Origin: a virus
Lineage: Duplodnaviria > Heunggongvirae > Uroviricota > Caudoviricetes
IMG/VR virus record: IMGVR_UViG_2531839332_000012
Strand: one strand, 5' to 3'
Length of the DNA stretch: 27,454 bases
Positions 753 through 27,454 of this stretch are shown here, piece after piece (the first letter of the stretch is position 1; every line of letters starts with the position of its first letter). The position numbers were made by a program, and so were the translations under genes. The notes beneath the pieces are model-generated. The model was not told where the DNA came from, did no database searches, and saw only the letters and a list, made by a program, of their open reading frames with translations.

Positions 753-771
753 ATTCATAAAGCAAGGCTGT

Positions 772-2678: not shown

Positions 2679-2681
2679 CTG

Positions 2682-5058: not shown

Positions 5059-5060
5059 TT

Positions 5061-7563: not shown

Positions 7564-7582
7564 ATAAATCATTTATTACAAC

Positions 7583-7610
7583 AGGCTACCTTCGGGTGGC
7601 CTTTTTTATT
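7583..7610 (+). terminator. Intrinsic terminator-like hairpin after the minor head protein gene
   Basis: aggctacc-ttcg-ggtggcct forms an 8-bp stem (one G-U pair) followed by TTTTTTATT, 20 nt after the stop at 7561-7563. Confidence 0.5.
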
Positions 7611-7667
7611 GCTGCGATCCGGATGGTGAGCAGCGTAACTGTCGGAAGACTTAAACCAGGTACTAAT

Positions 7668-8432: not shown

Positions 8433-8530
8433 CACATTTGTCAGCTTCCGGATGGGAGCTGGTGTCAGGGCTGGATAGCTCATTACTCCATCTATTCACA
8501 ATTACGCAAATTTTTAAGGAATATTTAATT

Positions 8531-9670
8531 ATGGCTGGAAATACCCTGACCGGGTTGATCCCGACTATTTATACCGCCCTGGATGTTGTATCCCGTGAGC
8601 AGGTAGGTTTTATCCCTGCGGTAGCAAAAAACGTAAAAGCTGACGCCGCAGCAAAAGATCAGACGGTAACCGCGCCAGTTGCGCCTGAGGCGAAAACCGA
8701 AGATATCGTACCGGGGCCGTCAGCTCCGAATACCGGTGATCAAAATATTGGCACTGTTGATGTAAAAATTACTAAATCCAAAATGGCACCGGTTAAATGG
8801 AATGGTGAAGAACAACTGGCTCTTGGCCCTTCAGGGACTTACAACACCATTCTGGCTGATCAGTTCAAGCAGGCTTTTCGCGCCCTTGCAAACGAGGTTG
8901 AGGCTGATCTTGGTGCGTTGTATTTCGGTGCTTCCCGCGCCGTGGGAACCGCAGGGACAACGCCGTTTGGTGTTAAAGATGATCTTTCTGATGCTGCTCT
9001 GGCTCGTCAGGTTCTGGAGGATAACGGCGCACCGACAACCGATCTGCAGATGGTGCTTGGCTCCACTGCCATTGCTAATTTGCGCGGAAAACAGTCTGTA
9101 TTGTTTAAAGTGAATGAATCCGGCACTGAACAGCTACTGCGTGAGGGCGTGTTGGGGCGTCTGGAGGGATTCAATATTCACAGTTCGGCAGGTGTGAAAC
9201 GAGCGCCAAAGGTTGCTGCAACTGGTTATCTCGTGAATGGAGAGAAAAAAGAAGGCGATGTTCTTATTTCCATTGATACTGGTTCGGGGAGTATTTCTGC
9301 AGGTCAGATTGTTACGTTCGCTGGTGATCCGAATCAGTATGTTGTGGCAGCAGCGACCAGCAATCTGATTACTCTTGCAGCGCCCGGACTGCGTCAGGAT
9401 CTGGCCGATGATACTGCCATCACAGTTGTTGGGGCCTTTACGGCAAATATGGCGTTTGATCGCAACGCGTTTCTGCTGGCATCCCGTACTCCGGCAATGC
9501 CGGAAGGTGGCGATAATGCTGATGATGTAATGAATGTTACGGACCCGATTTCAGGGATTACGTTCCAGATTGCACTGTATCGTCAGTATCGCCAGGTGCG
9601 CTATGAAGTTGGACTGGCATGGGGTGTTTCATCAGTGAAGCCGGCACATGGTTGTCTGATTCTTGGTTAA
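8531..9670 (+). CDS. Major capsid protein
   Basis: ATG 8531 is preceded by AAGGA at 8516-8520. The ~379-aa product sits after the scaffold gene and is followed by a strong terminator hairpin, as is common for coat genes. Confidence 0.7.
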   Translation: MAGNTLTGLIPTIYTALDVVSREQVGFIPAVAKNVKADAAAKDQTVTAPVAPEAKTEDIVPGPSAPNTGDQNIGTVDVKITKSKMAPVKWNGEEQLALGPSGTYNTILADQFKQAFRALANEVEADLGALYFGASRAVGTAGTTPFGVKDDLSDAALARQVLEDNGAPTTDLQMVLGSTAIANLRGKQSVLFKVNESGTEQLLREGVLGRLEGFNIHSSAGVKRAPKVAATGYLVNGEKKEGDVLISIDTGSGSISAGQIVTFAGDPNQYVVAAATSNLITLAAPGLRQDLADDTAITVVGAFTANMAFDRNAFLLASRTPAMPEGGDNADDVMNVTDPISGITFQIALYRQYRQVRYEVGLAWGVSSVKPAHGCLILG

Positions 9671-9680
9671 ACATTCAAAC

Positions 9681-9700
9681 GGGGCTTCGGCCCCATTTTT
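9681..9700 (+). terminator. Intrinsic terminator after the major capsid gene
   Basis: ggggc-ttcg-gcccc hairpin followed by ATTTTTA. Confidence 0.5.
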
Positions 9701-9712
9701 AATGGGGGGCAT

Positions 9713-9889
9713 ATGGCCGGATTAACTAAAGAGCAAAGAGCACAGCGTGAAGCCGCACAAAAAACGCAAATTGAGTTAGTGGTTATGGTGACCGATTATC
9801 AGATGTTTCCCGGCGCACCAACTATCGCTAATGTTCATCCTGATGAAGTTGACAACTGGAAGGCTATGGGCTGGAAAACTCAGGAGTAA
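9713..9889 (+). CDS. Small hypothetical protein (58 aa), absent from the ORF track
   Basis: ATG 9713 is preceded by GGGGGG at 9704-9709. I translated it by hand with no internal stop: MAGLTKEQRAQREAAQKTQIELVVMVTDYQMFPGAPTIANVHPDEVDNWKAMGWKTQE. It fills the gap between capsid and connector genes, and its 3' end supplies the SD (CAGGAG) for the next gene. Confidence 0.45.
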   Translation: MAGLTKEQRAQREAAQKTQIELVVMVTDYQMFPGAPTIANVHPDEVDNWKAMGWKTQE

Positions 9890-9892
9890 CAC

Positions 9893-10288
9893 ATGATCAC
9901 TTACGTGACCTGTGATGACGTTGATAATGCGTTTGGGAACGCCTGGACGAGTGAGAACGCTAAAAATAAAGCTGTTTTAATGGCTAATGCCTGGCTTAAT
10001 GGCTTCAACCTGAAAATTAACCCATCCCGTATTCCGGAAGAGGTAAAACTTGCGGGAGCATATGCAGCCAGAATTGCCTCATTCGGTAAGTTGTTTCAGC
10101 AGAAAAATGATTCTGGCGTTGTTATCAGTAAAGCCGTGTCGGCTGACGGGGTCAGTGTATCGAAATCATTTTCTGAGTTGCCAGCAAACAGCACTGCATT
10201 GCTTGAACCCGATTTACAGCTTGCGATAGCACTGCTGAAACCGTACGGACTTAGTCGCTCACAAGTCAGGGTTGTGAGGGGGGGATAA
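9893..10288 (+). CDS. Head-tail connector / head completion protein (putative)
   Basis: 131-aa ORF with SD CAGGAG; first of four small, translationally coupled neck genes. Confidence 0.5.
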   Translation: MITYVTCDDVDNAFGNAWTSENAKNKAVLMANAWLNGFNLKINPSRIPEEVKLAGAYAARIASFGKLFQQKNDSGVVISKAVSADGVSVSKSFSELPANSTALLEPDLQLAIALLKPYGLSRSQVRVVRGG

Positions 10289-10671
10289 TGGGGCTTCGTG
10301 AAGAGATTCAGTCAGAGGTTGCCGCTGCTTTTGATGAGGATTTAGCGGACGCCGTGAGTGATTTTTCTGGTTCTTACGTTACGCACCGGCACTGGGATCC
10401 TGTGACGGAAACTGGCGGCGAATCCACCGCAATCTATACCGGGCGAGGCGTGTTGACACGTTATAAGCTGGGCAGAATTGATGGGATTAATATTTTGCAT
10501 GGTGACCTTAAATTAACCGCTCTGGTATGCGAGGTTACGGATAAACCAGCTGTCGACCATATTATTGAGATTTATGATCCTGTATCAAGGCAGTTACAAC
10601 GATACGAGGTAATTACAGCAAGTGTAGATCCTTCCGCATCAGTTTACTCTATCCAGTTAAGGAGAGCGTAA
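10288..10671 (+). CDS. Head-tail adaptor / head closure protein (putative)
   Basis: 127-aa ORF. Its start overlaps the upstream stop (TAATG) and is preceded by a GAGGGGGGG SD. Confidence 0.5.
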   Translation: MGLREEIQSEVAAAFDEDLADAVSDFSGSYVTHRHWDPVTETGGESTAIYTGRGVLTRYKLGRIDGINILHGDLKLTALVCEVTDKPAVDHIIEIYDPVSRQLQRYEVITASVDPSASVYSIQLRRA

Positions 10672-11052
10672 ATGGCAAAGGCATGGGATATAGAACCGTC
10701 AATATTTGCCGGGATGATTGAGGAAGATGTAGGGCTGAAGATTCGCTACATCGCTATTCAGATTCTTACTGCTATTGATATTGCTGCTCCGGTTGATACC
10801 GGACGTTTCAGAAATAACAACCTGGTGTCGTTACAGCATCCCGATTTTGGTATATCTGATAACGTGGATCCGAACGGTACGATTGCTGTTCAGCGTGGGA
10901 TCGGGGTTATTTCGAAAGCTGCAAATTACGGAGTTATTTATATCCAGAATAACCTTCCTTATGCAGAGGCTCTTGAAAACGGTCATTCACAACAAGCGCC
11001 AACTGGCGTGTATGCCAACGCTTTTCATGGTGTTTTACAGGCTTACAAATGA
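10672..11052 (+). CDS. HK97 gp10-like neck / tail-attachment protein (putative)
   Basis: 126-aa ORF with SD AAGGAGAG. It contains the motif PVDTGRFRNN, which resembles the DTGxLR signature of the HK97 gp10 family. Confidence 0.5.
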   Translation: MAKAWDIEPSIFAGMIEEDVGLKIRYIAIQILTAIDIAAPVDTGRFRNNNLVSLQHPDFGISDNVDPNGTIAVQRGIGVISKAANYGVIYIQNNLPYAEALENGHSQQAPTGVYANAFHGVLQAYK

Positions 11053-11441
11053 CGTTTACTGAAATCAGAAATACGGTTATTTCCAGAATGACGGCACAGA
11101 CGATTATTGATGGAAAAGACGTATTGTATCCGAACGCGCCAACGTTCGATCCTTCCGGTAAGTTAATCTGGGCGCGGTTAAGTAATATTCCCGGGCAGGC
11201 TGGAGTTAATGAAATTGGCGCGGGGCCGATTGTTTATCGCACGGGGATAATCATTATTCAGTTATTTGTCCCCGCAGGTTCTGGTTCAAAACTCATTACT
11301 GAGACAGCCGATAAATTGCGGGAACTGTTTGAGTTTCAGGATGACGATCGTCTCAGTTACCAGGCTGTTTCCTCAATAGCCGTTGGCGAAAAGAATGGCT
11401 GGTTCCAGCTTAATCTTCAAATTCCATATCGCGCGCTCTAG
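11049..11441 (+). CDS. Tail completion / tail terminator protein (putative)
   Basis: 130-aa ORF overlapping the upstream stop (ATGA), immediately upstream of the major tail gene. Confidence 0.5.
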   Translation: MTFTEIRNTVISRMTAQTIIDGKDVLYPNAPTFDPSGKLIWARLSNIPGQAGVNEIGAGPIVYRTGIIIIQLFVPAGSGSKLITETADKLRELFEFQDDDRLSYQAVSSIAVGEKNGWFQLNLQIPYRAL

Positions 11442-11467
11442 CGCAATTAATGACATAGGAGGCTCCT

Positions 11468-12430
11468 GTGAGTTCAGGTGCAAAGGTTATCTCGGCATTT
11501 ATCCGGGAGACGGTTGCAGGCACTACGCCAGCAAGTGGTGACTGGAGTTTATTAAAACGCACAAGCTGGGGAGTAAAACCCACCCAGAATAAAGGCGAAA
11601 ATAATGAGATTGGTGGCTCCCGGATGGCTCAGGGGGCGACGCCTGGCACTGTGGATGTCGGCGGTGATGTTGGTACCAAATTTCGCTGGGGTCAACATGA
11701 TGATTTTCTTGCATCCTGTTTCGGCGCGGAATGGTCAGGCGATTCTCTGACAATGGGGAATGAGCGAATAACATTTTCTCTGGCGACCTATGCGTCCGAT
11801 GTCGGAATTGCCTCTGTCGTCAGAGGAGCGCAGGTTGGCTCATGGAAAATGCAGATCCCTAACGACGGCGATATTACAGCGACCGTAACCTTTGCCGGAC
11901 TGGACTGGGAATCAAAGGCCGATGATACGAATTTTATCAAAGGCGAACCTGTGGATAGTGCAGGAAAGCTACGTTATTCGTTTAAGGAGGTTTCAGCAGT
12001 AAGCCTGAATGGTGTTGCCGGAGGTAACGGTTTTTGTATCGACAGTTTTGATATTCAGTTCGATAACAAACTCCAGACACAGCGTTGTATCGGGACTGGC
12101 TCGCCTTATGCAGGAGCAAATATTCCGACTACTTTTACACCGTCCGGTACGGTGACGCTTTCATGGTCTAAAGCCGCGTGGGAAATCTGGAGTAAAACAC
12201 TGACTGGAGAAACAGTTCCGTTCAGCTTCACGCTTTCGAATGGAGAGGGGGCATACACTTTCAGTTTCCCGAAGGTTCAGGTGTCAGGTGAATGGCCTGA
12301 TGGGGGTAATAGCGACATTATCCAGGTTCAATTGAGCATTACCGCAGCAGATGAAGCACCTACGATAACCAGAAAAAAAAATTCCCCGGCTGCCGTGATC
12401 GCAAAAGCCAGTGCTGAGGCGATTAGTTGA
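11468..12430 (+). CDS. Major tail (tube) protein
   Basis: GTG start preceded by AGGAGG at 11457-11462. The 320-aa product is Gly/Ser/Thr-rich and lies directly upstream of the G/GT chaperone pair and tape measure. Confidence 0.7.
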   Translation: MSSGAKVISAFIRETVAGTTPASGDWSLLKRTSWGVKPTQNKGENNEIGGSRMAQGATPGTVDVGGDVGTKFRWGQHDDFLASCFGAEWSGDSLTMGNERITFSLATYASDVGIASVVRGAQVGSWKMQIPNDGDITATVTFAGLDWESKADDTNFIKGEPVDSAGKLRYSFKEVSAVSLNGVAGGNGFCIDSFDIQFDNKLQTQRCIGTGSPYAGANIPTTFTPSGTVTLSWSKAAWEIWSKTLTGETVPFSFTLSNGEGAYTFSFPKVQVSGEWPDGGNSDIIQVQLSITAADEAPTITRKKNSPAAVIAKASAEAIS

Positions 12431-12478
12431 TTTTCCGTTATTCCTCCTGTGGTACTGCCCTACAGGGGGACGCATTGA

Positions 12479-12940
12479 ATGAGGTTATGGATGTTTATTC
12501 TTAATCAGAAAATTATCATTGGTGTAGAACGCTGGTTTACGCCAATGAAGGACTTAAAACCTGTAGACGGGTTAAAACTGTTGGTGGCAAGCAGCGATAA
12601 CGATCAGTATCGCTCCCGTAATGCATTAATCCGTCGCCACATTGAGAAAATGGATGCCAGTTTGCACGTCGGAACGAAGGAGTTTGATATTTCAAAGGTT
12701 TCCGAGGTGGATTCTGTTGATGATTTACTCATTGATAATGCCGCTCGTTATCTGCTGAAAGACTGGAAAGGGGTTGGTGAACTGGTTAATGGTGTTGAGG
12801 TTGCACTGGAATATACGGCAGAACGAGGGATCGCGCTGCTTAAGCAGAATCCAGAGTTGTACTGGCAGATCCTTGCAGAAGCAGCCAGCATCGCCCAGGG
12901 TAAAGAGCAGCAGAAGCAGGATACGATAAAAAAGCCATAG
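12479..12940 (+). CDS. Tail assembly chaperone (lambda gpG analogue)
   Basis: ATG 12479 is preceded by GGGGGA. The ~153-aa acidic product ends just after an A AAA AAG slippery heptamer, and the -1 frame stays open to 13248. It sits between the major tail and tape measure genes. Confidence 0.75.
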   Translation: MRLWMFILNQKIIIGVERWFTPMKDLKPVDGLKLLVASSDNDQYRSRNALIRRHIEKMDASLHVGTKEFDISKVSEVDSVDDLLIDNAARYLLKDWKGVGELVNGVEVALEYTAERGIALLKQNPELYWQILAEAASIAQGKEQQKQDTIKKP

Positions 12941-13248
12941 CTGCCCAGCGGTGGTTATCGGAGTTCGGGGGAGAAAGGGGGGAAAAGGCAAGATGGAAGC
13001 GAGAAAAACTCAGGTTGCCACCGATACCGGAACCAGAAATAGACCCGGTGCTTAAGGAGTTGTTGTACGCCTATTCGGTAATATCCCGTGCCCGACGTTA
13101 TGCTGGAATGGCTGGGGTGCCTTTGCCTTTATCTCTGACAGAGATAAATGAATATTTAACCACTCATCCGGTATTGATTGAGCGCGATGAATTTGAAGCA
13201 GTGATCTTTGCACTGGATGACCAGTATTTTCAGGAGCAGTGTGTGTAG
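12479..13248 (+). CDS. Tail assembly chaperone frameshift product (lambda gpGT analogue), made by -1 ribosomal slippage at 12928-12934
   Basis: The -1 frame is free of stops from the heptamer at 12928-12934 through 13246-13248. The predicted junction is ...QDTIKK then KAIAAQRWLSEFGGERGEKARWKREKLRLPPIPEPEIDPV... Coordinates are the outer limits of the two joined segments (12479..12934 and 12934..13248). Confidence 0.6.
12928..12934 (+). promoter_or_regulatory. Slippery heptamer A AAA AAG for programmed -1 frameshifting
   Basis: The zero-frame codons AAA (12929-12931) and AAG (12932-12934) are preceded by A at 12928. This is the same heptamer class as E. coli dnaX. The G-frame stop follows 1 codon later. 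Confidence 0.6.
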
Positions 13249-13369
13249 TTGTTAATTACGTACACTCTGTTACAGAGATGTGATGGTGTCTTTAATTAAA
13301 TCGATGATGCTCCTGGAGAAAAGCATTGCGTGGCCTCGTAATCGCTATATCTACTATTATGTCGCCTGA

Positions 13370-13396
13370 AACCCACTTCGCGGTGGGTTTTTTGTT
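13370..13396 (+). terminator. Intrinsic terminator-like hairpin just upstream of the tape measure gene
   Basis: aacccac-ttcgcg-gtgggtt forms a 7-bp stem followed by TTTTTGTTG. It ends ~18 nt before the tape measure ATG at 13414, whose SD GGAG lies at 13401-13404. Confidence 0.45.
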
Positions 13397-13413
13397 GTCA
13401 GGAGTTTTAATAA

Positions 13414-16400
13414 ATGGCAGAGCAAACCTCGCGTCTCGCAATAATTATTGATAGCACTGGAGCGAAAAATAATGCTGACAATCTGACCTCCTCATTAGTC
13501 AAAATGACGCAGGCTGGGGAAACTGCTGCAAATAGCGCAGGGAAAGTGACTAAGGCAACAGAAGATGAGAAGAACGCGCTCGCAAAATTAAAAGCAGCTA
13601 TTGATCCAGTTGGTGCCGCAATTGATACTGTCGGTCGACGCTATTCTGAATTAAAGAAATTTTTCGATAAAGGGCTTATTGATAAAGAAGAATATGAATT
13701 TCTTGTCCGTAAACTTAATGAAACCACAGAGGAATTGAGCGGGGTTGCGCAAGCGCAGAGAGAAGCCGAGAAGGCCGGAAAACTTGCTGCCGCCCAGCAG
13801 GAAGCGCAGGCTCAGGCCTTTCAAAGAATGCTGGACAAGATCGACCCTCTGGCTGCGGCGCTAAGAAATCTTGAACAACAGCATGATGAACTTAATGCTG
13901 CGTTTGCATCCGGGAAAATAAATGGTTCTCAGTTTGAGAATTATAGCCGAAAAATACAGGAAACACGGCGAGAGCTTACCGGAGAGGCTCAGGCAGAGCG
14001 AGAAGCAGCAAAAGCGCATGATGAACAGGTTGTTGCTTTGCAACGTCTGATTGCTCAACTTGATCCTGTCGGAACTGCTTTTAATCGTCTGGTAGAACAA
14101 CAGAAACAGCTCAATGAAGCAAAAGCTAAGGGGATGCTTTCTCCTGAAATGTATGAGGAGCTTTCTGGAAAACTTCGTGCTATGCGGAGTGAGCTTGAGG
14201 TTACTCAATCACAATTAAGCAAAACCGGAATGTCGGCAAAACAAACGGCTTTTGCTATGCGCATGTTGCCTGCACAAATGACGGATATTGTTGTTGGGTT
14301 GTCCACTGGTCAGTCGCCATTTATGGTGTTAATGCAGCAGGGCGGCCAGCTAAAAGATATGTTCGGTGGGATTGGCCCGGCGATCAAAGGGGTAGGTTCT
14401 TATGTGCTGGGATTAATTAATCCTTTTACCCTGGCCGCAGCAGCCGTTGGGGTCTTAGGACTGGCTTACTATAAAGGCTCTCAGGAGCAGGACGAATTTA
14501 ATAAATCTCTTATTCTTACCGGAAATCAGTTGGGGACAACCAGCGGGCAATTGGGCGATTTAGCTCAACGTGCCGGGAATGCGGCTGATTCGACAACTGG
14601 TGCTGCGGCGGCAGTATTAAATCAGCTTGTGCGTTCGGGAAAGGTAGCGAGCAGTTCGCTGGAGCAAGTGACGACAGCGATAGTAAAAACGAGCGAAGTA
14701 ACAGGAATATCAACCGAACAACTGGTTAATGACTTCAATGAAATTGCAAAGGATCCTGTCAGTGCCATATCAAAACTTAATGATCAGTACCATTTTCTGA
14801 CACTTGCGACTTATAACCAGATTAAGGCGCTACAGGATGAAGGGAACCAGCAGGAGGCCGCCCGCATTGCGACAGAAGAATACTCATCCTCAATGATCCA
14901 GCGCACCAACCAGATTAAAGAAAATCTTGGTTATCTTGAGACTGCATGGAAAGCTGTCGCAGACTCCGCAAAATGGGCATGGGATTCCATGCTGGATATT
15001 GGCCGTGAGGCCTCCCTTGATCAAAAAATCTCAGATGTTCTCCGTCAAATTGATGAAATAGAAAAAAATACCCGATCCGGAGTTTTCGGGTTAGGTGGCA
15101 TTGGAGATGGCGGAGCTCAAAATAAAAGGCTGGCACGATTAAAGCAGCAATTGGGCGTACTTCAAGCAGAAAAAATTGCTCAGGACGTACTAAATTCATC
15201 AATAAACGATTACAACAAGCGACAACAGGAAGGAATTGAACTCAGACAGAGAGCAGATGCCTTTTCAAAACAATATCAGACCCGGGAGCAGCAGAGAGCT
15301 AGTGAACTTGCAAAACTGGAAAAGCTAAAGAATCAGTATTCAAAGGAAGAATATAATAATCTTATCGCTCAAATAAATGAGCGTTATAAAGATCCAAAGC
15401 AACCAAAGGCGAAAGATTATTCTGATGATGCAGCCCAACGAATGATTGATCATCTGAATCAACAGAATGCGTTACTAAGTTCACAAGCTGAGTTGACCGT
15501 TAAATTAAGTTCCTCTGAACAGGAACTGGTTAAGTGGCGTCAGCGGATTGCCGACCTAGAGTCACGACCATCATCGAAATTAACCCAGGATCAGAAATCG
15601 CTTCTCTTACACCGGGAAGAAATAACCACGTTGATGGAGAAAAATGTTGCGATTGAAAAAAATAACAGGCTAATCAAGGAATCCGCCGAAATAACAGCAT
15701 GGCGTGATTCATTGCAGGCTTCGATTGATAATCGTCAGCAGGGGTATGATATTCAGATTGCTGGTTATGGGGTTGGCGATAAAAATCAGCAACGCCAGCA
15801 GGAATTACTGCGGATTGAACATGGATATAACAATCAGCGTCTGCAACTTGAACGTGACTATGCAGATAAATCCCGTGGAATGTCAGATCATGTTTTTCAA
15901 GAGAAAATGCAGGCTCTGAATGATGCTCTGGAACGGGAAAAAGAAATTGTCAGACAGAAAAACGAGCAGCTCGATATTCAGGCAGGAGACTGGGTTAGTG
16001 GTGCCTCCCAGGGATTCAATAACTGGCTGGATGACACTAAGGATATCAGTGAGCAGATAAAATCAACCACGACTCAGATGTTTGATGGGATGACCGATGC
16101 GCTGGGTGATTTTGTCACGACAGGCAAGGCAAATTTTCGTTCTTTCGCTACTTCCGTGATTTCGGATCTTAGTCGAATAGCATTAAAGGCTTCAATTACT
16201 GGGATTTTCGACAGCATTAGTAACAGTTCTTCTGGGGGGATTTTAGGAACTATCGGGAGTGCTATTAGTAAATTTATTCCGAATGCAAAGGGCGGTGTTT
16301 ATGAGTCTCCGTCATTGAGCACGTATTCGAACGGTATTTATGATTCCCCGCAATTTTTTGCTTTTGCAAAAGGGGCTGGTGTTTTTGGTGAGGCTGGACC

Positions 16401-16647
16401 GGAAGCCATTATGCCATTAACACGAACTTCCGATGGTTCTCTTGGTGTCAGAGCTATTAATAGTAAAAGTGGTAATGGAGGCGGAGATATTACCTATGCC
16501 CCTGTATACCAAATCACTATTCAAAATGACGGCCAGAATGGAGAGATTGGCCCTCAGGCAATAAAAGCACTTATGGGGATGGTTGATCAGCGGGTGCAGG
16601 GCAATCTGTTAAATATGCGACGTGATGGGGGAATGTTAAGTGGCTAA
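13414..16647 (+). CDS. Tail tape measure protein
   Basis: 1077-aa protein with a long coiled-coil Ala/Gln/Glu-rich N-terminal half and hydrophobic mid-region ([35 protein letters not shown]), at the canonical position after G/GT. Confidence 0.9.
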
Positions 16648-16978
16648 TACGGAAGAATTTCACTGGTTACCAGAGGATGGAATGAAAACAGAAAATAAAC
16701 CATCGATAAAAACTGTAAGATTTGGCGATGGTTATGAGCAACGAAGTCCAAATGGACTTAATCATTCTCTGCGCGTTTTCACCTGTGATTTCAAAGTTGA
16801 GGCGAATGAACGTGATTCATTTGAAAAATTTTTAGCCCGGCATGAAGGCTATAAATCTTTTTTTTGGCGCCCGCCGGGTATTAACAGAAAAATCAGAGTG
16901 GTGTGTCGAACGTGGTCAGCGACAGAACATATCACCTATACCGATTTTTCGTGTCAGTTTGACGAAGTGGTGATCTGA
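16640..16978 (+). CDS. M: Minor tail protein M (lambda gpM homologue)
   Basis: Contains [16 protein letters not shown] and [17 protein letters not shown], matching the lambda gpM family. GTG 16640 overlaps the tape measure stop; ATG 16682 is an alternative start. Confidence 0.8.
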
Positions 16979-17652
16979 TGCAGGACATACAACAGGAAAC
17001 GCTGAATGAATGCATTCGTGCGGAGCAGTCGGCCAGCGTGGTGCTCTGGGAAATCGACCTGACCGAGGTAGGCGGGGATCGCTACTTTTTCTGTAATGAG
17101 CAGAACGAAAAAGGTGAGTCTGTCACCTGGCAGAGTCGGCAGTATCAGGCCTATCCCATTCAGGGGAGTGGATTTGAGATGAACGGCAAGGGCAGTGCTG
17201 CCCGTCCGACACTGACGGTCTCTAACCTGCACGGCATGATCACCGGGATGGCGGAAGATCTGCAGAGTCTGGTCGGCGGAACGGTGGTCCGGCGTAAGGT
17301 TTACGCCCGTTTCTGGATGCGGTGAACTTCGTCAACGGAAACAGAGCCGATCCGGAGCAGGAGGTGATAGCCGCTGGCGCATGAGCAGTGCAGCGAACTG
17401 AGCGCGGTAGTGCCTCTTTGTACTGTCCACGCCGACGAAACGGATGGGCGTTTTTCCGGGCGATCATGCTGGCAAACCTGCACCTGGACCTATCGCGGGA
17501 GAGTGCGGTTATACGGTCCGGCGTCGCGGATGAATATGACCAGCCACGTCCGATATCACGAAGGATAAATGCAGCAAATGCCTGAGGGTGTAAGTTCGCA
17601 ATAAGTCGGCAACTTTGGCGGCTTCCTTTCCATTAACAAACTTTCGCAGTAA
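16978..17652 (+). pseudogene. L: Minor tail protein L (lambda gpL homologue), frameshifted in this sequence
   Basis: The N-terminus [33 protein letters not shown] is lambda L-like, but the frame stops at 17325 after ...VYARFWMR. The homologous sequence continues in another frame (AVNFVNGN...), implying a 1-nt loss in ttctggatgcgg at ~17311, with further shifts downstream. Confidence 0.75.
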
Positions 17653-17657
17653 ATCCC

Positions 17658-18285
17658 ATGACACAGACAGAATCAGCGATTCTGGCGCACGCCCGGCGAT
17701 GTGCGCCAGCGGAGTCGTGCGGCTTCGTGGTAAGCACGCCGGAGGGGGAAAGATATTTTCCCTGCGTGAATATCTCCGGTGAGCCGGAGGCGTATTTCCG
17801 TATGTCGCCGGAAGACTGGCTGAGGCAGAAATGCAGGGTGAGATTGTGGCGCTGGTCCACAGCCACCCCGGTGGTCTGCCCTGGCTGAGTGAGGCCGACC
17901 GGCGGCTGCAGGTGCAGAGTGATTTGCCGTGGTGGCTGGTCTGCCGGGGGACGATTCATAAATTCCGCTGTGTGCCGCATCTCACCGGGCGGCGCTTTGA
18001 GCACGGGGTGACGGACTGTTACACGCTGTTCCGGGATGCTTACCATCTGGCGGGGATTGAGATGCCGGATTTTCATCGCGGGGATGACTGGTGGCGTAAC
18101 GGTCAGAATCTCTATCTGGATAATCTGGAGGCCACAGGGCTGTATCAGGTGCCGTTGTCAGCGGCGCAGCCGGGCGATGTGCTGCTGTGCTGTTTTGGTT
18201 CATCGGTGCCGAATCATGCCGCATTTACTGGGGACGCGAGCTGCTGCACCATATTCCTGAACAACTGAGCAAACGAGAGAGGTAA
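17658..18285 (+). pseudogene. K: Tail assembly protein K (lambda gpK homologue), frameshifted in this sequence
   Basis: Split between ORF 17658..17888 (MTQTESAILAHARRCAPAESCGFVV...) and ORF 17831..18268 (MQGEIVALVHSHPGGLPWLSEADRR..., with HxH and Cys motifs of the K family), with another shift near the 3' end. Confidence 0.75.
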
Positions 18286-18292
18286 CCGACAA

Positions 18293-18907
18293 ATGGCAGC
18301 GACGCACACACTCCCTCTGGCGTCACCGGGCATGGCCGCATCTGCCTTTACGGGGATTTACAACGATTTGGCGCCGCATCGACCTTCGGTGAAAACGGGG
18401 CGAAGCCATCCGGGCGCTGGCCACAGTCCCGGCTTTCGTCAGAAACTGAGACGGCTGGTACAGGTCGCATTGCCGGGCGTGATGCAGGTGAAACCGAATT
18501 TCTGCCCGTCTTAATGAGCCGCTGGAAATGGTGCCGTGATCCATATCGTGCCGCGTCTGGGGCAAAAGTGGCGGTGTGTTTCAGGTGTGCTGGGGGCGGC
18601 GTTATTGCGGTGGCATGGTGGAACCCTGTGGGCTGGCTGGGTGCCGCGGCTGTATCGGCATGTTCGGGCCAGTATGATCTGGCGGTGTGGCGCAGATGCT
18701 GGCACCGAAAGCCAGGACGTCCACGGCAGCCAGTACAGATAACGGCAAACAGAACACCTATTTTTCCTCACTGGATAACATGGTTGCCCAGGGCAATGTT
18801 CTGCCTGTTCTGTACGGTGAAATGCGCGTGGGGTCCGCGTGGTTTCTCAGGAGATCAGCACGGCAGACGAAGGGGACGGTGGTCAGGTTGTGGTGATTGG
18901 TCGCTGA
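18293..18907 (+). pseudogene. I: Tail assembly protein I (lambda gpI homologue), multiply frameshifted in this sequence
   Basis: Starts MAATHTLPLASPGM, then homologous segments appear in different frames (IHIVPR..., IAVAWWNPVGWLGAAAVS..., AQMLAPKAR...TDNGKQNTYFSSLDNMVAQGNVLPVLYGEMRVGS, ending QVVVIGR). Confidence 0.7.
18604..18713 (+). repeat. Copy A of a ~120-bp duplicated gene I segment (deletion-bearing copy)
   Basis: The first 55 nt are identical to 27335-27389. The remainder matches 27390-27454 apart from about 10 missing nucleotides at several positions. Confidence 0.7.
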
Positions 18908-18967
18908 TGCAAAATGTTTTATGTGAAACCGCCTCCGGGCGGTTTTGTCGTTTATGGAGCATGACGA

Positions 18968-21900
18968 ATGGGTAAAGGCAGCAGTAAGGGGCATACCCCG
19001 CGCGAAGCGAAGGACAACCTGAAGTCCACGCAGCTGCTGAGTGTGATCGATGCCATCAGCGAAGGGCCGGTTGAAGGTCCGGTGGATGGATTAAAAAGCG
19101 TGCTGCTGAACAGTACGCCGGTGCTGGACAGTGAGGGGAATACCAACATCTCCGGTGTCACGGTGGTGTTCCGGGCCGGTGAGCAGGAGCAGACACCGCC
19201 GGAGGGATTTGAATCCTCCGGTCCGAGACGGTGCTGGGTACGGAAGTGAAATACGACACGCCGATCACCGGACCATCACGTCGCAAACATCGACCGTCTG
19301 CGCTTTACCTTCGGTGTGCAGGCACTGGTGGAAACCACCTCAAAGGGGGACCGGAATCCGTCGGAAGTCCGCCTGCTGGTTCAGATACAGCGTAATGGTG
19401 GCTGGGTGACGGAAAAAGACATCACCATTAAGGCAAAACCACCTCGCAGTATCTGGCTCGGTGGTGGTGGGTAACCTGCCGCCGCGCCCGTTCAATATCC
19501 GGATGCGCAGGATGACGCCGGACAGCACCACAGACCAGCTGCAGAACAAAACGCTCTGGTCGTCATACACCGAAATCATCGATGTGAAACAGTGCTACCC
19601 GAACACGGCACTGGTCGGCGTCAGGTGGATTCGGAGCAGTTCGGCAGCCAGCAGGTGAGCCGTAATTATCATCTGCGCGGGCGTATTCTGCAGGTGCCGT
19701 CGAACTATAACCCGCAGACTCGGCAATACAGCGGTATCTGGGACGGAACGTTTAAGCCAGCATACAGCAAAACATGGCCTGGTGTTGTGGGATATGCTGA
19801 CCCATCCCGCTACGGCATGGGGAAACGTCTTGGTGCGCGGATGTGAAAATGGGCGCTGTATGTCATCGGCCAGTACTGCGACCAGTCGTGCCGGACGGCT
19901 TTGGCGGCACGGAGCCGCGCATCACCTGTAATGCGTACCTGACCACACAGCGCAAGGCGTGGGATGTGCTCAGTGATTTCTGCTCGGCGATGCGCTGTAT
20001 GCCGGTATGGAACGGGCAGACGCTGAGTTCGTGCAGGACCGACCTCGATAAGGTGTGGACCTATAACCGCAGTAATGTGGTGATGCCGGATGATGGGCGC
20101 CGTTCCGCTACAGCTTCAGCGCCCTGAAGGACCGCCATAATGCCGTTGAGGTGAACTGGATTGACCCGAAAACGGCTGGGAGACGGCGACAGAGCTTGTG
20201 AGAACCAGGCCATTGCCCGTTACGGTCGTAACGTCACGAAGATGGATGCTTTGGCTGTACCAGCCGGGGGCAGGCCACCGCGCCGGGCTGTGGCTGATTA
20301 AAACGAACTGCTGGAACGCAGACCGTGGACTTCAGCGTGGGTGCGAAGGGCTTCGCCATGTACCGGGGATGTCATTGAAATCTGCGATGATGACTATGCC
20401 GGTATCAGCACCGGGGCGCGTGCTGGCGGTGAACAGCCAGACCCGGACGCTGACGCTCGACCGTGAAATCACGCTGCCATCTCCGGACCACGCTGATAAG
20501 CCTGGTTGACGGAAGTGGAATCCGGTCAGCGTGGAGGTCAGTCCGTCACCGACGGCGTGAAGGTAAAGTGAGCCGGTTCCTGACGGCGTTGCCGATACAG
20601 CGTGTGGGGGCTGAAGCTGCCGACGCTGCGCCAGCGCCTGTTCCGCTGGTGAGTATCCGTGAGAACGAGACGGACGTATGCCATCACGCGTGCAGCATGT
20701 ACCGAAAAGAAGCCATCGTGGATAACGGGGCGCACTTTGACGGACCGAGCGGCACGGTGAATGGGTCACGCCGCCGCGTGCAGCACTGACGCCGAAGTCA
20801 CCGCAGACAGCGGGGAATACAGGTGCTGGCGCTGGGACACGCCGAAGGTGGTGAAGGGGTGAGCTTTGCTTCGCCTGACCGTGGCAGCGGAGAGGCAGTG
20901 AGCGGCTGGTCAGACGGCCGGACGACGGAAACCACTACCGCTTCACGCACTGGCCGGGAACTACAGGCTGACGTCCGGGCGGTAAATGCGTGGGGCAGCA
21001 GGGCGACCGGCATCGGTATCGTTCCGGATTGCCGCACCGGCAGCGCCGTCGCGGATTGAGCTGACGCCGGGCTATTTTCAGATAACCGCCACGCCGCATC
21101 TTGCGGTTTATGATCCGACGGTACAGTTTGAGTTCTGGTTCTCGGAAAAGCGGATTGCGGATATCAGGCAGGTTGAAACCACAGCCCGCTATCTTGGTAC
21201 GGCGCTGTACTGGATAGCCGCCAGTATCAATATCAAACCGGGCCATGATTATTATTTTTACGTTCGCAGTGTGAACACCGTTGGCAAATCGGCATTCGTG
21301 GAGGCTGTCGGTCAGCCGAGTGATGATGCATCAGGCTATCTGGATTTTTTCAAAGGCGAGATAGGGAAAACCCATCTGGCTCAGGAGCTGTGGACGCAGA
21401 TTGATAACGGTCAGCTTGCGCCTGACCTGGCTGAAATCAGGACGTCCATTACGGATGTCAGCAATGAAATCACACAGACCGTCAATAAGAAACTGGAAGA
21501 CCAGAGTGCAGCGATCCAGCAGATACAGAAGGTTCAGGTTGATACAAATAATAACCTGAACAGCATGTGGGCTGTGAAGCTGCAGCAGATGCAGGACGGA
21601 CGCCTTTATATTGCGGGTATCGGTGCCGGTATTGAGAACACCCCTGACGGCATGCAGAGTCAGGTGCTGCTGGCGGCAGACAGGATTGCGATGATTAATC
21701 CTGCGAATGGCAACACAAAGCCGATGTTTGTTGGTCAGGGCGATCAGATATTCATGAATGAAGTGTTCCTGAAACGCCTGACGGCTCCCACCATTACCAG
21801 CGGCGGTAATCCTCCGGCATTTTCCCTGACACCGGACGGACAGCTGACGGCGAAAAATGCCGATATCAGTGGCAGTGTGAATGCGAACTCCGGGACGCTC

Positions 21901-22377
21901 AACAACGTCACGATTAACGAGAACTGTCGGGTTCTGGGAAAACTGTCCGCCAACCAGATTGAAGGCGATCTCGTTAAAACAGTGGGCAAAGCTTTCCCCC
22001 GGGACTCCCGTGCACCGGAACGGTGGCCATCAGGGACCATCACCGTCAGGGTTTATGACGATCAGCCGTTTGACCGGCAGATTGTTATTCCGGCGGTGGC
22101 ATTCAGCGGCGCTAAACATGAGAGGGAGAATAACGATATTTATTCGTCATGCCGCCTGATAGTACGGAAAAACGGTGCTGAAATTTATAACCGTACCGCG
22201 CTGGATAATACGCTGATTTACAGTGGCGTTATTGATATGCCTGCCGGTCGCGGCCACATGACGCTGGAGTTTTCGGTGTCATCATGGCTGGTAAATAACT
22301 GGTATCCCACAGCAAGTATCAGCGATTTGCTGGTTGTGGTGATGAAGAAAGCCACCGCAGGCATCAGTATCAGCTGA
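18968..22377 (+). pseudogene. J: Tail tip / host specificity protein J (lambda gpJ homologue); N-terminal ~2 kb multiply frameshifted, C-terminal 463 codons intact
   Basis: Starts MGKGSSKGHTPREAKDNLKSTQLLSVIDAISEGP. The first 2 kb is then fragmented into at least 8 ORFs across frames (18968, 19131, 19461, 19592, 19843, 20198, 20463, 20823), before one continuous frame 20986..22377. Confidence 0.8.
20986..22377 (+). CDS. J: Intact C-terminal ORF of J (receptor-recognition region); probably part of full-length J rather than a separate gene
   Basis: 463 codons without interruption, starting at ...[46 protein letters not shown]. This is the largest ORF an automated annotator would call here. Confidence 0.45.
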
Positions 22378-22395
22378 ATTTTATAACCCATATAC

Positions 22396-22423
22396 GGGCG
22401 CCAGAAATGGCGCCTTTTTTATT
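22396..22423 (+). terminator. Intrinsic terminator after J
   Basis: ggcgcc-agaaat-ggcgcc hairpin followed by TTTTTTATT, starting ~20 nt after the J stop. Confidence 0.55.
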
Positions 22424-22444
22424 GCAGAAAAGCGAGAGGTAATT

Positions 22445-22999
22445 ATGCGTAAAGTTTGTGCAGCCATTTTGTCCGCAGCCATTTGTCTGGCCGTATCCGG
22501 TGCGCCTGATGGGCGTCTGACACAGCCACCTGAGCGCGGGTATCTTCATGCCCGACGAACGCCCGGCAGGATATCTGAACGGGATTAACGTGAAATACCG
22601 TTATGAGTTTACGGACCCTGGGGTGTACGTCTTCAGTATGCAGAGATCAACCGTACAGCGATACCCGCTGGCATGAAGATTCCGTCGTAACCGCTGGTTC
22701 AGCGTATGGCGGGGCCGTCTGTCGCGTGAATGAATGGTTCAGCGCGTATGCGATGGGGGTGCTTACAGCCGTGTGTCGACTTTCTCCGGGGATTATCTCG
22801 CGTAACTGACAACAAGGGGAAAAGCACGATGTGCTGACCGGAAGTGATGACGGTCGCCACAGCAACAGTCTCTGGCGTGGGGGGCTGGCGTGCAGTTTAA
22901 CCCGACCGAATCCGTGGCCATTGATGTCGCTTATGAAGGCTCCGGCAGTGGGACTGGCGCACTGACGGTTTCATCGTGGGTGTCGGTTATAAATTCTGA
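22445..22999 (+). pseudogene. lom: Lom/Ail-family outer membrane protein gene, frameshifted in this sequence
   Basis: ATG 22445 with SD GAGAGG encodes a signal-peptide-like start MRKVCAAILSAAICLAVSG. Lom-like segments then appear in several frames (GINVKYRYEF, VNEWFSAYAMGVLTAV, AYEGSGSG, GFIVGVGYKF stop). Confidence 0.7.
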
Positions 23000-23025
23000 T
23001 TAGCCAGGTAACACAGTGTTATGAC

Positions 23026-23053
23026 AGCCCGCCGGTTCAGGCGGGCTTTTTTG
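23026..23053 (+). terminator. Intrinsic terminator after lom
   Basis: agcccgcc-ggttca-ggcgggct forms an 8-bp GC-rich stem followed by TTTTTTG. Confidence 0.6.
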
Positions 23054-23063
23054 TGGGGTGAAT

Positions 23064-26000
23064 ATGGCAGTAAAGATTTCAGGTGTACTGAAAGACGGCA
23101 CAGGAAAACCGGTACAGAACTGCACAATCCAGCTGAAAGCAAAACGTAACAGCACCACGGTGGTGGTGAACACGCTGGCCTCAGAAAATCCGGATGAAGC
23201 CGGGCGTTACAGCATGGACGTTGAGTACGGGCAGTACAGCGTTATTCTGTTGGTGGAGGGATTCCCGCCGTCACATGCCGGGACCATCACCGTGTATGAA
23301 GATTCCCGACCCGGTACGCTGAATGATTTTCTCGGTGCCATGACGGAGGATGATGCCCGTCCTGAGGCACTGCGCCGTTTTGAACTGATGGTGGAAGAGG
23401 TGGCGCGTAACGCGTCCGCGGTGGCACAGAACACGGCAGCCGCGAAGAAGTCAGCCAGCGATGCCGCACATCGCCCGTGAGGCGGCAACCCATGCGACTG
23501 ATGCTGCAGGCTCAGCACGCGCAGCCAGCACGTCAGCCGGACAGGCCGCTCGTCGGCTCAGTCAGCATCTTCCAGCGCAGGAACGGCATCAACAAAGGCC
23601 AGTGAAGCATCGAAAAGTGCTGCTGCTGCAGAGTCCTCAAAAAGCGCGGCAGCTACCAGTGCCGGTGCGGCGAAAACGTCAGAAACGAATGCGGCAGCGT
23701 CACAACAATCAGCAGCCACTTCTGCATCCGCCGCGACCACGAAGGCGTCAGAAGCAGCCACCTCAGCCCGGGATGCGGCGGCCTCAAAAGAGGCAGCGAA
23801 ATCATCAGAAACGAACGCATCATCAAGCGCCAGTAGTGCCGCTTCCTCGGCAACGGCGGCAGGCAATTCCGCGAAGGCGGCAAAGACGTCTGAGACAAAC
23901 GCCAGGTCTTCTGAAACGGCAGCGGGACAGAGTGCCTCAGCTGCGGCAGGCTCAAAAACAGCGGCTGCGTCGTCTGCCAGTGCCGCGTCAACAAGTGCCG
24001 GGCAGGCCTCAGCCAGTGCCACCGCCGCCGGAAAATCGGCAGAAAGCGCCGCATCGTCTGCTTCAACAGCCACAACGAAGGCTGGCGAAGCCACTGAACA
24101 GGCCAGCGCAGCAGCAAGGTCTGCTTCCGCAGCGAAGACATCCGAGACGAACGCGAAAGCGTCGGAAACCAGCGCAGAATCCTCAAAAACGGCTGCCGCA
24201 TCGTCCGCCAGTTCGGCGGCGTCATCGGCATCATCGGCGTCTGCTTCAAAAGATGAGGCGACCAGACAAGCGTCCGCAGCGAAGGGCAGCGCCACGACGG
24301 CATCCACGAAGGCGACAGAGGCAGCTGGCAGTGCGACGGCGGCAGCTCAGAGCAAAAGTACGGCGGAATCCGCGGCAACGCGCGCTGAGACAGCGGCAAA
24401 ACGGGCAGAGGATATTGCATCCGCCGTGGCGCTTGAGGATGCGAGCACGACGAAAAAGGGGATAGTACAGCTCAGCAGTGCGACCAATAGCACTTCCGAG
24501 TCACTGGCGGCAACGCCAAAAGCCGTTAAGGCCGCGTATGACCTGGCTAACGGGAAATACACCGCACAGGATGCAACGACAGCACAGAAAGGGATAATCC
24601 AGCTAAGCAGCGCGACCAACAGCACGTCTGAAACGCTGGCGGCAACGCCAAAGGCAGTAAAATCAGCCTATGACAATGCAGAGAAACGTCTGCAGAAAGA
24701 CCAGAACGGCGCTGATATACCCGATAAGGGACGCTTCCTGAACAACATTAACGCGGTCAGTAAAACAGACTTTGCTGATAAGCGTGGTATGCGTTATGTG
24801 CGGGTTAACGCTCCTGCAGGTGCAACATCTGGAAAATATTACCCTGTTGTTGTTATGCGTTCTGCTGGCTCAGTAAGCGAACTGGCATCAAGGGTCATTA
24901 TCACCACGGCAACGCGAACCGCAGGCGATCCGATGAATAACTGCGAGTTTAACGGATTTGTTATGCCTGGTGGCTGGACTGACAGGGGGCGTTATGCTTA
25001 TGGAATGTTCTGGCAATATCAAAACAATGAACGAGCCATCCACTCAATAATGATGAGTAATAAGGGCGATGATTTGCGCTCTGTGTTCTATGTTGATGGC
25101 GCTGCTTTCCCTGTTTTTGCGTTTATCGAAGATGGCCTGTCAATATCCGCACCTGGTGCTGATCTCGTTGTTAATGATACGACCTATAAGTTTGGGGCAA
25201 CAAATCCAGCGACTGAATGTATCGCGGCGGACGTTATCCTTGATTTTAAGAGTGGGCGTGGTTTTTATGAGTCTCATTCGTTAATCGTTAACGATAACTT
25301 GTCGTGCAAAAAACTTTTTGCCACAGACGAAATTGTAGCGCGTGGTGGTAATCAGATTCGAATGATAGGTGGGGAGTATGGGGCATTATGGCGTAATGAT
25401 GGCGCTAAAACTTACCTGCTGCTTACCAATCAAGGTGATGTTTATGGTGGCTGGAATACATTAAGACCGTTTGCTATTGATAACGCAACCGGCGAACTGG
25501 TTATTGGAACCAAACTGTCCGCAAGTCTGAACGGTAATGCATTAACAGCAACAAAGCTGCAAACGCCAAGACGGGTTTCTGGTGTTGAGTTTGATGGTTC
25601 AAAAGATATTACTTTAACCGCCGCGCATGTGGCTGCTTTTGCCAGAAGGGCAACGGATACATATGCCGATGCGGATGGTGGCGTTCCCTGGAATGCCGAA
25701 TCAGGCGCTTATAATGTCACCCGCTCTGGCGACAGCTATATTCTGGTTAACTTCTATACCGGAGTCGGAAGTTGCCGGACCTTGCAGATGAAGGCGCATT
25801 ACAGAAATGGTGGTCTGTTCTACCGTTCTTCAAGAGACGGTTATGGTTTTGAGGAAGACTGGGCAGAAGTTTATACCTCGAAAAATCTTCCACCAGAAAG
25901 CTACCCAGTCGGCGCACCAATCCCGTGGCCATCAGATACCGTTCCGTCTGGTTATGCCCTGATGCAGGGGCAGACTTTTGACAAATCTGCTTACCCGAAA

Positions 26001-26588
26001 CTTGCAGCCGCTTATCCGTCAGGCGTGATCCCTGATATGCGTGGCTGGACGATTAAGGGCAACCGCCAGTGGTCGGCCGTATTGTCTCAGGAACAGGACG
26101 GCATTAAATCGCACACCCACAGCGCCAGCGTATCCAGTACGGATTTGGGTACGAAAACCACATCATCGTTTGATTACGGCACTAAATCCACGAATAACAC
26201 TGGTGCGCATACTCATAGTTTAAGTGGCAGCACGAATGCAGCTGGTAATCACAGCCATAGAGATGGCCGTCGATTTAACCCCAGTGTTTTTAAAGATACT
26301 TATCAATATGGTTATACAAGCTCAGGTCAAAATACCTGGGGTGTACAAGGCTCAGTAGGTATATCTACGGGGTGGTTAGCGAATACCAGTACAGATGGTA
26401 ATCATAGCCATTCACTGTCCGGCACAGCAGCATCTGCAGGTGCACACGCGCATACTGTCGGTATTGGTGCTCATACGCACTCCGTTGCGATTGGTTCACA
26501 TGGACACACCATCACCGTTAACGCTGCTGGTAATGCGGAAAACACCGTCAAAAACATCGCATTTAACTATATTGTGAGGCTTGCATAA
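23064..26588 (+). pseudogene. stf: Side tail fibre protein (lambda Stf family); reading frame interrupted near 23468 and 23550, otherwise continuous
   Basis: The N-terminus MAVKISGVLKDGTGKPVQNCTIQLKAKRNSTTVVVNT is in frame 0 to a stop at 23478-23480. Homology continues in frame +1 ([18 protein letters not shown]) and returns to frame 0 from ~23550. That frame then runs without a stop through the Ala/Ser/Thr-rich shaft and the C-terminal domain (...[22 protein letters not shown]) to 26588. Confidence 0.85.
24426..26588 (+). CDS. stf: C-terminal ORF of the side tail fibre as it appears in the ORF track (distal shaft and tip with HxH repeats); part of stf
   Basis: 720-aa ORF from the first start codon. 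The same frame is actually open from 23502, because Ala/Ser/Thr codons supply no start codon. It contains repeated HxH motifs. Confidence 0.45.
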
Positions 26589-27163
26589 TGGCATTCAGAA
26601 TGAGTGAACAACCACGGACCATAAAAATTTATAATCTGCTGGCCGGAACTAATGAATTTATTGGTGAAGGTGACGCATATATTCCGCCTCATACAGGTCT
26701 GCCAGCAAACAGTACCGATATTGCACCGCCAGATATTCCGGCAGGCTTCGTGGCTGTTTTCAACAGTGATGAGGCATCGTGGCATCTCGTTGAAGATCAT
26801 CGGGGAAAAACCGTCTATGACGTGGCTTCCGGCGACGCGTTATTTATTTCTGAACTCGGTCCGTTACCGGAAAATGTTACCTGGTTATCGCCGGGAGGGG
26901 AATATCAGAAGTGGAACGGCACAGCCTGGGTGAAGGATACGGAAGCAGAAAAACTGTTCCGGATCCGGGAGGCGGAAGAAACAAAAAACAACCTGATGCA
27001 GGTAGCCAGTGAGCATATTGCGCCGCTTCAGGATGCTGCAGATCTGGAAATTGCAACGGAGGAAGAAATCTCGTTGCTGGAAGCATGGAAAAAGTATCGG
27101 GTATTGCTGAACCGTGTTGATACGTCAACTGCACAGGATATTGAATGGCCAGCACTGCCGTAG
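26588..27163 (+). CDS. tfa: Tail fibre assembly protein (lambda Tfa family)
   Basis: ATG overlaps the stf stop (TAATG). The 191-aa product [54 protein letters not shown]... matches the Tfa chaperone family, at the canonical position after stf. Confidence 0.9.
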
Positions 27164-27325
27164 GGTAAAACATATAAATTCTATAATTAGCAAAATCGAT
27201 TTTGTGAAAAATGGCTTTAACTCGGTTTGTTTTTCGAGTTCCGGGCGGACTCAAGGAAGAAGAATAGTGTTGCGTGTTATTTTAACCAGATTTCAAGTTG
27301 TTTGGTCGTGGAAAAGTGGAGCAAA

Positions 27326-27454
27326 ATGTTGTTGATTGCGGTGGCATGGTGGAACCCTGTGGGCTGGCTGGGTGCCGCGGCTGTATCGGGCATGTATGCG
27401 GCAGGGGCCAGTATGATCCTGGGCGGTGGGGCGCAGATGCTGGCACCGAAAGCC
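27326..27454 (+). CDS. Start of an ORF running off the window end, homologous to the hydrophobic C-terminal part of tail assembly protein I
   Basis: ATG 27326 is preceded by GTGGAG. It reads MLLIAVAWWNPVGWLGAAAVSGMYAAGASMILGGGAQMLAPKA in frame to the last base of the window. The DNA from 27335 is near-identical to 18604-18713 inside the I pseudogene. Confidence 0.35.
   Translation, partial: MLLIAVAWWNPVGWLGAAAVSGMYAAGASMILGGGAQMLAPKA
27335..27454 (+). repeat. Copy B of the duplicated gene I segment (in-frame copy, truncated by the window end)
   Basis: Direct comparison with 18604-18713. This copy keeps the reading frame (...GASMILGGGAQMLAPKA). Confidence 0.7.

Follow-up and report, generated by a model that had tools for sequence, protein, structure and literature searches.

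Introduction

The closest described relative of the locus analysed here is the Rac prophage of Escherichia coli in the copy carried by strain PSJ-36, the closest complete genome, where trkG and ynaK are its neighbours and ydaY, stfR and tfaR are among its genes. Rac-type prophages are frequently defective; unlike the K-12 Rac remnant, the contig described below has a full set of head and tail genes. In draft bacterial assemblies, consensus errors at collapsed repeats strike multi-copy mobile-element segments while the unique flanks remain clean; contigs stop on entering another copy of the repeat, and finished genomes are free of the lesions. Such errors usually take the form of chimeric base choices or ambiguity codes. 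Small deletions that create artificial frameshifts are also known from nanopore assemblies of Enterobacteriaceae, in which ~70% of the consensus errors are reported to lie in Dcm motifs, with homopolymers next (Wick et al. 2019, PMC6591954).

The window, a stretch of 27,454 nucleotides, is the whole of WGS contig AQAA01000221.1 from the draft E. coli assembly GCA_000356765.2. It consists of prophage sequence only, so that the integration site lies outside it, and is collinear with the PSJ-36 prophage, to which its left arm (1..16977) is ~99.9% identical with no 1-nt indels; it differs in being without pinR and running into a second fragment of gene I (Table 1). Between the two ends, the tail-tip genes are fragmented by small deletions, which have all the likenesses to collapsed-repeat errors named above and one difference: columns are missing altogether, so that the deletion-only pattern mimics massive frameshifting. 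This fragmentation is not a biological feature. In all likelihood, the 6.3-kb stretch reflects an error of consensus building in the draft assembly, which merged the reads of paralogous lambdoid tail modules and dropped the discordant columns; genuine decay of the prophage is very improbable.

Table 1. Features along the window and the state in which each is found
Feature	Position	Strand	State
Left arm of Rac-type prophage late region (terminase, portal, capsid, tail tube, tape measure, M)	1..16977	+	clean, single-copy
Gene L, minor tail protein L	16978..17652	+	22 dropped positions, 17310-17605
Gene K, C40 peptidase	17658..18392	+	9 dropped positions, 17825-18389; re-insertion restores the frame
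Gene I, tail assembly protein	18332..18907	+	against the closest allele, L024 (NZ_CM148329.1), 18 deletion events (33 nt) and zero insertions
Gene J, N-terminal ~2 kb	18968..21007	+	65 dropped positions, 19222-21007
Gene J, C-terminal (receptor-binding) part	21008..22377	+	undamaged, no deletions
lom, Ail/Lom outer-membrane protein	22445..22999	+	33 deletion events (45 nt), 22509-22952; re-insertion restores the frame
stfR, side tail fibre gene	23064..26588	+	bases dropped at 23467, 23473 and 23550, and at 26063, 26065 and 26076
tfaR, tail fibre assembly gene	26588..27163	+	intact
143 nt found downstream of pinR in PSJ-36	27191..27333	+	pinR (798 bp) absent here
Segment from within gene I, second copy	27334..27454	+	very end of the contig, every base present

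Extent and type of the deletions

Deletions were called against the PSJ-36 locus (L001), with gene I re-aligned to a closer allele, L024 (NZ_CM148329.1). Over its full 27.4 kb, the alignment to PSJ-36 contains 158 deletion events; 154 of them fall within 17310-23550 (binomial p=5e-92), where they remove ~180 nt; outside this range, almost no indels occur. Most events are losses of a single nucleotide (139/158 over the whole alignment), and they are distributed over L (22 events), K (9), I (18-25), J (65), lom (33) and stf (3). Genuine insertions are absent from the stretch when PSJ-36 and the closer gene I allele are both taken into account; eight apparent insertions, all in gene I, vanish once the closer allele serves as the reference. 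The retained bases are essentially those of intact alleles, and the dense deletion patches are almost free of accompanying substitution errors; the gene I copy at 18332..18907 mixes bases of two alleles at a few sites. No IS elements were found among the lesions.

The open reading frame list and the stop-to-stop frames agree with a sequence-only reading of the window, which had confined the frame breaks to L, K, I, the N-terminal part of J, lom and the 5' end of stf. It had let the damage extend from 16978 to 23560: the clustering holds, but the first damage is at 17310 and not at the start codon of L, and a base loss at ~17311 had been its own example. The genes in 1-16978 are intact, as it had stated; on the right side (~23560-27163), which it had likewise described as unbroken, three 1-nt losses in stf (26063, 26065 and 26076) have to be added, which lie beyond the main range and are jointly in frame. 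The two frame breaks that it had placed in stf (~23468 and ~23550) are present, with bases dropped at 23467, 23473 and 23550, and an open frame at 23502-26585 follows the two breaks. The 463-codon ORF noted for the C-terminal part of J (20986..22377) is indeed intact. This part of J aligns to other genomes without gaps (best identity 98.1%); in some panel paralogues it is 10-34% diverged, in others <5% over parts of its length. Further downstream, many genomes match 26900-27190, a stretch that takes in the final 264 nt of tfaR, at 100% identity.

With the missing bases re-inserted, L, K, I, J, lom and stf are all full-length and free of stop codons: J regains its full 1160-codon frame, and the repaired gene I sequence translates into full-length gpI.

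Sites of base loss

Third codon positions account for 95 of 136 single-nt deletions (p=5e-18) and for 67 of the 81 (83%) that can be placed unambiguously (p=7.5e-20). In gene L the count is 20/21, in gene J 43/60, and a hand count from the coordinates places the late stf deletions (26063, 26065, 26076) at third positions in 3/3 cases. Natural substitutions are likewise biased towards third positions (104/160).

Natural polymorphism was scored in a panel of tail modules from seven other E. coli genomes. As many as 132 of the 154 events (86%) coincide with a site that varies among the seven modules, whereas 22 events are at sites that are invariant in this small panel. Variable sites make up 70% of the deleted sites versus 15% of the background (OR 12.7, p=6e-59) and, at third positions alone, 84% versus 28% (p=5e-31). 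In the 3' half of L (L001 18800-19200), 15 of the 18 differences between CREC-629 and PSJ-36 are exactly the dropped sites, and the left boundary of the damage lies where the divergence of the paralogous CREC-629 and P27 alleles drops from ~10-20% to ~5%.

Copy number and a probable collapse of paralogues

The tail-tip module is present at ~17,000 places in 5,034 of 5,426 complete genomes, with a median of 3 and a maximum of 15 per genome. The left arm (9400-16900) occurs at 1,155 places in 1,152 genomes, with a median of 1 per genome, and has 100.0% matches in several complete genomes. The deletions are shared by none of the 5,426 complete genomes, no phage record carries them, and the best identity reached by the damaged module is 95.7%. 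The analysis, which included alignment to closed genomes, a check proposed in the sequence-only reading, shows that the deletions in the deposited contig are unique to it, lie at naturally polymorphic positions within a multi-copy module and can be reversed completely. The collection holds no near-identical complete genome with further prophages that could supply the second allele; PSJ-36 is the best match for the right arm (97.6%).

The idea favoured from the outset, that a segment recurring in several lambdoid prophages had suffered an artefact of assembly or consensus calling, stands: the lesions occur in no other genome, they hit only the multi-copy module, and repair returns intact genes. 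The artefact most probably arose in the following manner: the sequenced genome would carry several slightly different copies of L, K, I, the N-terminus of J, lom and the N-terminus of stf, one per lambdoid prophage. Where these copies are sufficiently similar, their reads would be stacked together in one pile, and in columns of disagreement the consensus step would emit no base, or an ambiguity symbol that is later stripped; every discordant column would then become a 1-nt deletion. That paralogous reads were mixed is what we infer from the pattern, as is the precise step at which software dropped the columns; we know of no documented assembler that deletes discordant columns, and the software step is a conjecture. 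Some segments are free of dropouts although the panel alleles are ~5% apart there; under a collapse of paralogues, the copies of the source genome must therefore be assumed to be identical or absent in these segments.

The deletions are present in the deposited record: the contig stored at NCBI under AQAA01000221.1 is of equal length and, over the compared 20.3 kb (6978-27325), identical to the window and composed of A, C, G and T only. This rules out that ambiguity codes were stripped while the window was prepared; stripping of ambiguity symbols before submission is possible.

Alternative origins of the deletions

Unpolished or low-coverage long reads (nanopore or PacBio) could also leave such traces, as random or methylation-linked deletions would stay uncorrected where short reads are non-unique in the repeat. 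The deletion-only lesions, their restriction to the repeated region and the two events touching CCWGG fit an error of this kind, which is nevertheless decidedly improbable in view of the sites concerned. The sequence-only reading had pointed to two deletions in CCTGG, the Dcm site; the count is right, in that exactly 2 of 154 events (1.3%) touch one of the nine CCWGG sites, but its significance is lost, the overlap being no more than chance. GATC is touched by 4/154 events, and the homopolymer context of the deletions equals the background (chi-square p=0.13), with 14 of 139 single-nt deletions in runs of at least 3; Dam, Dcm and homopolymer contexts are all rejected as the cause. The published nanopore errors reside in CCWGG and in homopolymers of at least 3 (PMC6591954), whereas those seen here follow codon position and natural polymorphism. 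Read error cannot yield 83% third codon positions among unambiguous deletions together with 86% of events at variable sites, and the near absence of substitution errors from the dense patches speaks against it as well. The nanopore/Dcm mechanism is therefore rejected, because deletions that are non-random in both codon position and polymorphism are beyond error at the level of reads. A truly decayed tail module, in a cryptic Rac-type prophage unable to make tail tips, had been the other option considered, and it is highly improbable. Prophages of this type are frequently defective (in the PSJ-36 copy itself an IS2 is present and the gene for the terminase small subunit is frameshifted), and pinR is missing from the contig; decay would, however, have had to produce ~154 deletions and not a single insertion, nonsense codon or IS element, to target synonymous, polymorphic sites, to keep the other bases essentially identical to those of intact alleles, to leave no single lesion that recurs anywhere among 5,426 complete genomes and to spare the neighbouring 17 kb entirely. 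The density of the deletions had already been judged unlike ordinary pseudogene decay. Pseudogenisation would be expected to leave a mixture of insertions, deletions, nonsense codons and IS elements irrespective of codon position; the deletion-only pattern, the absence of nonsense codons after repair and the strong third-position bias differ from this.

A consensus artefact may also have drawn its second allele from a contaminating or co-cultured strain in place of paralogous prophages. The polymorphic-site signature is compatible with either source, and sequence alone cannot separate them; a second strain is very improbable all the same, given that the contig itself holds a second gene I copy, that most E. 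coli genomes already have 2-3 or more copies of the module and that the 17-kb left arm is free of dropouts. It is barely conceivable that the deletions are real and arose at paralogue differences, for example when heteroduplexes of diverged copies underwent aberrant repair in which the mispaired base was cut out; loss of the tail module would in that case be due to prophage recombination itself.

Implications for draft assemblies

The importance of a consensus artefact from collapsed paralogues concerns data hygiene and not biology. Users of the assembly would score six tail genes as pseudogenes and the prophage as defective, and aberrant ORF fragments of the contig already sit in public protein collections. 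The pattern also offers a cheap, read-free discriminator between collapsed-paralogue errors, sequencing-chemistry errors and true decay in other drafts, the discriminating signs being that all lesions are deletions, that they fall on third positions of codons and on sites of known polymorphism, and that they are restricted to a multi-copy module.

The contig end

The contig-end junction (27191..27333 region) occurs in none of the 5,426 complete genomes, and exact-pattern scans of IMG/VR and of GTDB species-representative genomes found neither this junction nor the deletion-dense stretch. H41 (NZ_CM148329.1), in which the two parts of the contig end at first seemed to be near neighbours, was rejected as a model for the contig end, its layout of K, I, J' and 'tfa not being collinear with the window; separately from this, it is the source of the best gene I allele. 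The gene I segment at the contig end, 120 nt of one further module copy and the only part of the other copies that is seen, shows directly that the tail-tip module occurs more than once in the assembly. Aligned with each other, the two gene I copies (18604-18713 and 27335-27454) have 10 gap positions in 120 columns, in keeping with the ~10 nt that had been noted as missing from the first copy.

Deletions in the tail-tip genes

The products of the ORFs 16978..17325 and 20986..22377 match exactly in just one contig, AQAA01000221.1 of the draft E. coli assembly GCA_000356765.2 (NCBI); at 27,454 bp, this contig is the window in full. A comparison over 20.3 kb showed the stored contig to be the same as the window, with an alphabet of A, C, G and T only, and the oddity therefore resides in the deposited sequence; we take the accession series to suggest a submission around 2013, which would predate nanopore assemblies. 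The contig consists of the late region of a lambdoid prophage of Rac type and is collinear with the prophage of the complete genome of E. coli PSJ-36, which adjoins trkG and ynaK and bears ydaY, stfR and tfaR; across the first 17 kb, the two are ~99.9% identical. In 16500-24500, the G+C content climbs at the M/L boundary, from about 44-47% to 58-62%, and drops again within stf, which sets the lambda-type tail-tip module apart from the remainder of the Rac-type prophage as a mosaic block.

The listed ORFs and the frames read from stop to stop bear out the gene layout proposed in the sequence-only reading: genes are unbroken as far as 16978; fragmentation affects L, K, I, lom and the first 2 kb of J; the C-terminal ORF of J (463 codons) is intact; and stf has two breaks near its start, the frame being open thereafter from 23502 to 26585. 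Base-by-base alignment to the PSJ-36 prophage yielded 158 deletion events, 154 of them within 17310-23550 (binomial p=5e-92) and 139 of a single nucleotide. The eight apparent insertions all fall in gene I, of which the window and PSJ-36 have different alleles; against the closer allele from NZ_CM148329.1, the gene has 18 deletion events and is free of insertions. Lesions noted earlier were also recovered, namely the first break at ~17311, the ~10 nt by which the first gene I copy falls short of that at 27335-27454, and the two deletions inside CCWGG. Beyond the range then described, three 1-nt deletions within 14 nt (26063, 26065 and 26076) each remove a third codon position in the C-terminal half of stf; jointly they keep the frame while scrambling ~5 codons, and they look like the same artefact.

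Deleted positions and copy number

Many deleted positions are spaced by exactly 3 nt in the reference. The third codon position was removed in 95 of the 136 single-base deletions lying within one gene (p=5e-18) and in 67 of the 81 that could be placed unambiguously (p=7.5e-20); natural substitutions between the window and PSJ-36 have the same bias (104/160), and the deleted positions are therefore those that vary naturally. When seven other E. coli tail-tip modules served as a panel of natural variability, 132 of the 154 deletion events fell on variable sites. Variable sites make up 70% of deleted versus 15% of retained positions (odds ratio 12.7, p=6e-59), and 84% versus 28% among third codon positions alone (p=5e-31). 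In the 3' half of L, 18 sites distinguish a real allele, that of strain CREC-629, from the backbone, and 15 of these are exactly the dropped positions. At a few sites, the damaged gene I copy combines bases from two alleles and thus fits no single real haplotype.

What lambdoid prophages have in common is the tail-tip module: of 5,426 complete E. coli genomes, 5,034 have matches to the 7.5-kb stretch, at ~17,000 places in all (median 3, maximum 15 per genome), and 275 phage records match it as well. A left-arm stretch of equal length occurs at 1,155 places in 1,152 genomes (median 1), several of them at 100.0% identity, and the whole left arm matched 12 phage records; for the damaged stretch, the top identity among the complete E. 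coli genomes searched is 95.7%. Damage sets in inside L, where two paralogous alleles (CREC-629 and P27) go from a divergence of about 10-20% in each 200 nt to one of ~5%. The C-terminal part of J, which is without damage, is 10-34% divergent in some panel alleles and under 5% in parts in others. The last 120 nt of the contig belong to a second, undamaged gene I copy, so the assembly contains more than one copy of the module; it is typical for a contig to break off upon entering a repeat.

Origin of the deletions

Very probably, two or more paralogous modules were merged and the consensus left a base out wherever they disagreed. Reads or sequence paths of at least two tail-tip modules would have been joined where the copies were similar enough, and columns with disagreeing copies would have produced no base at the consensus step. 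At tied columns, a gap may have won in the consensus call, for example if mismatches were encoded as adjacent insertion/deletion columns, or ambiguity codes may have been written and then stripped ahead of submission. A contaminating strain could instead be the source of the second allele; the presence of the second gene I copy on this very contig and the flawless 17-kb left arm make that less likely.

The sequence-only reading had favoured an artefact in a repeated region, which stands, and a nanopore/Dcm mechanism, which does not. Long-read chemistry errors do not fit: only 2 of the 154 events touch CCWGG and 4 touch GATC, and the deleted bases lie in homopolymer contexts that match the regional background (p=0.13), whereas about 70% of ONT consensus errors are reported in Dcm motifs, followed by homopolymers (PMC6591954). 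Its biological alternative, a genuinely decayed tail module, is not supported either. The damaged stretch has no insertions, IS elements or nonsense codons, and refilling the reference base at each gap returns full-length L, K, J (1160 codons), lom and stf frames, as re-insertion does for gene I. Where the deletions are densest, the bases that remain agree with the intact reference; relative to PSJ-36, for instance, 14 deletions come with no substitutions in 17001-17500, and 33 with two in 22501-23000. The fragmented tail genes are not a real biological feature, and their value lies in a warning on record AQAA01000221.1 and in a recognisable pattern for similar artefacts.

Contig end and other features

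At 27190/27191, pinR (798 bp in PSJ-36) is precisely missing, and the next 143 nt lead into an internal gene I segment at 27333/27334. Neither junction was found in any of the 5,426 complete E. coli genomes; the contig end could be chimeric or a real passage into a truncated second tail module.

The tandem-repeat array in the terminase small-subunit gene (indel at 2839) is one 10-nt unit shorter than in PSJ-36, which looks like natural repeat-number variation; the ORF is intact in the window (364 codons, 2682..3776) and annotated as frameshifted in PSJ-36. The window is also without the 1.3-kb IS2 insertion of PSJ-36 in a gene annotated as phage minor head protein, and the two alignment blocks overlap there by 5 nt, which fits an IS2 target-site duplication. 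The long ORFs overlapping stf in other frames or antisense are probably spurious; the 249-codon antisense ORF is among the gene calls of the draft assembly. The direct repeat in stf is presumably a repeated fibre motif.

Additional features of the window
Feature	Position	Strand	Details
Short tandem-repeat array, terminase small-subunit gene	2807-2892
IS2 site of PSJ-36	6712-6716
Alternative-frame and antisense ORFs over G+C-rich part of stf	23389-24465; 23558-24420	+; -	334, 249, 255 codons (ORF list); 358 stop-to-stop
Direct repeat in stf	24456-24542; 24588-24674		87 nt, 79% identity
Rfam IS009 (RF02111), within tfaR	26931-27129	+	full-length match, 220.9 bits
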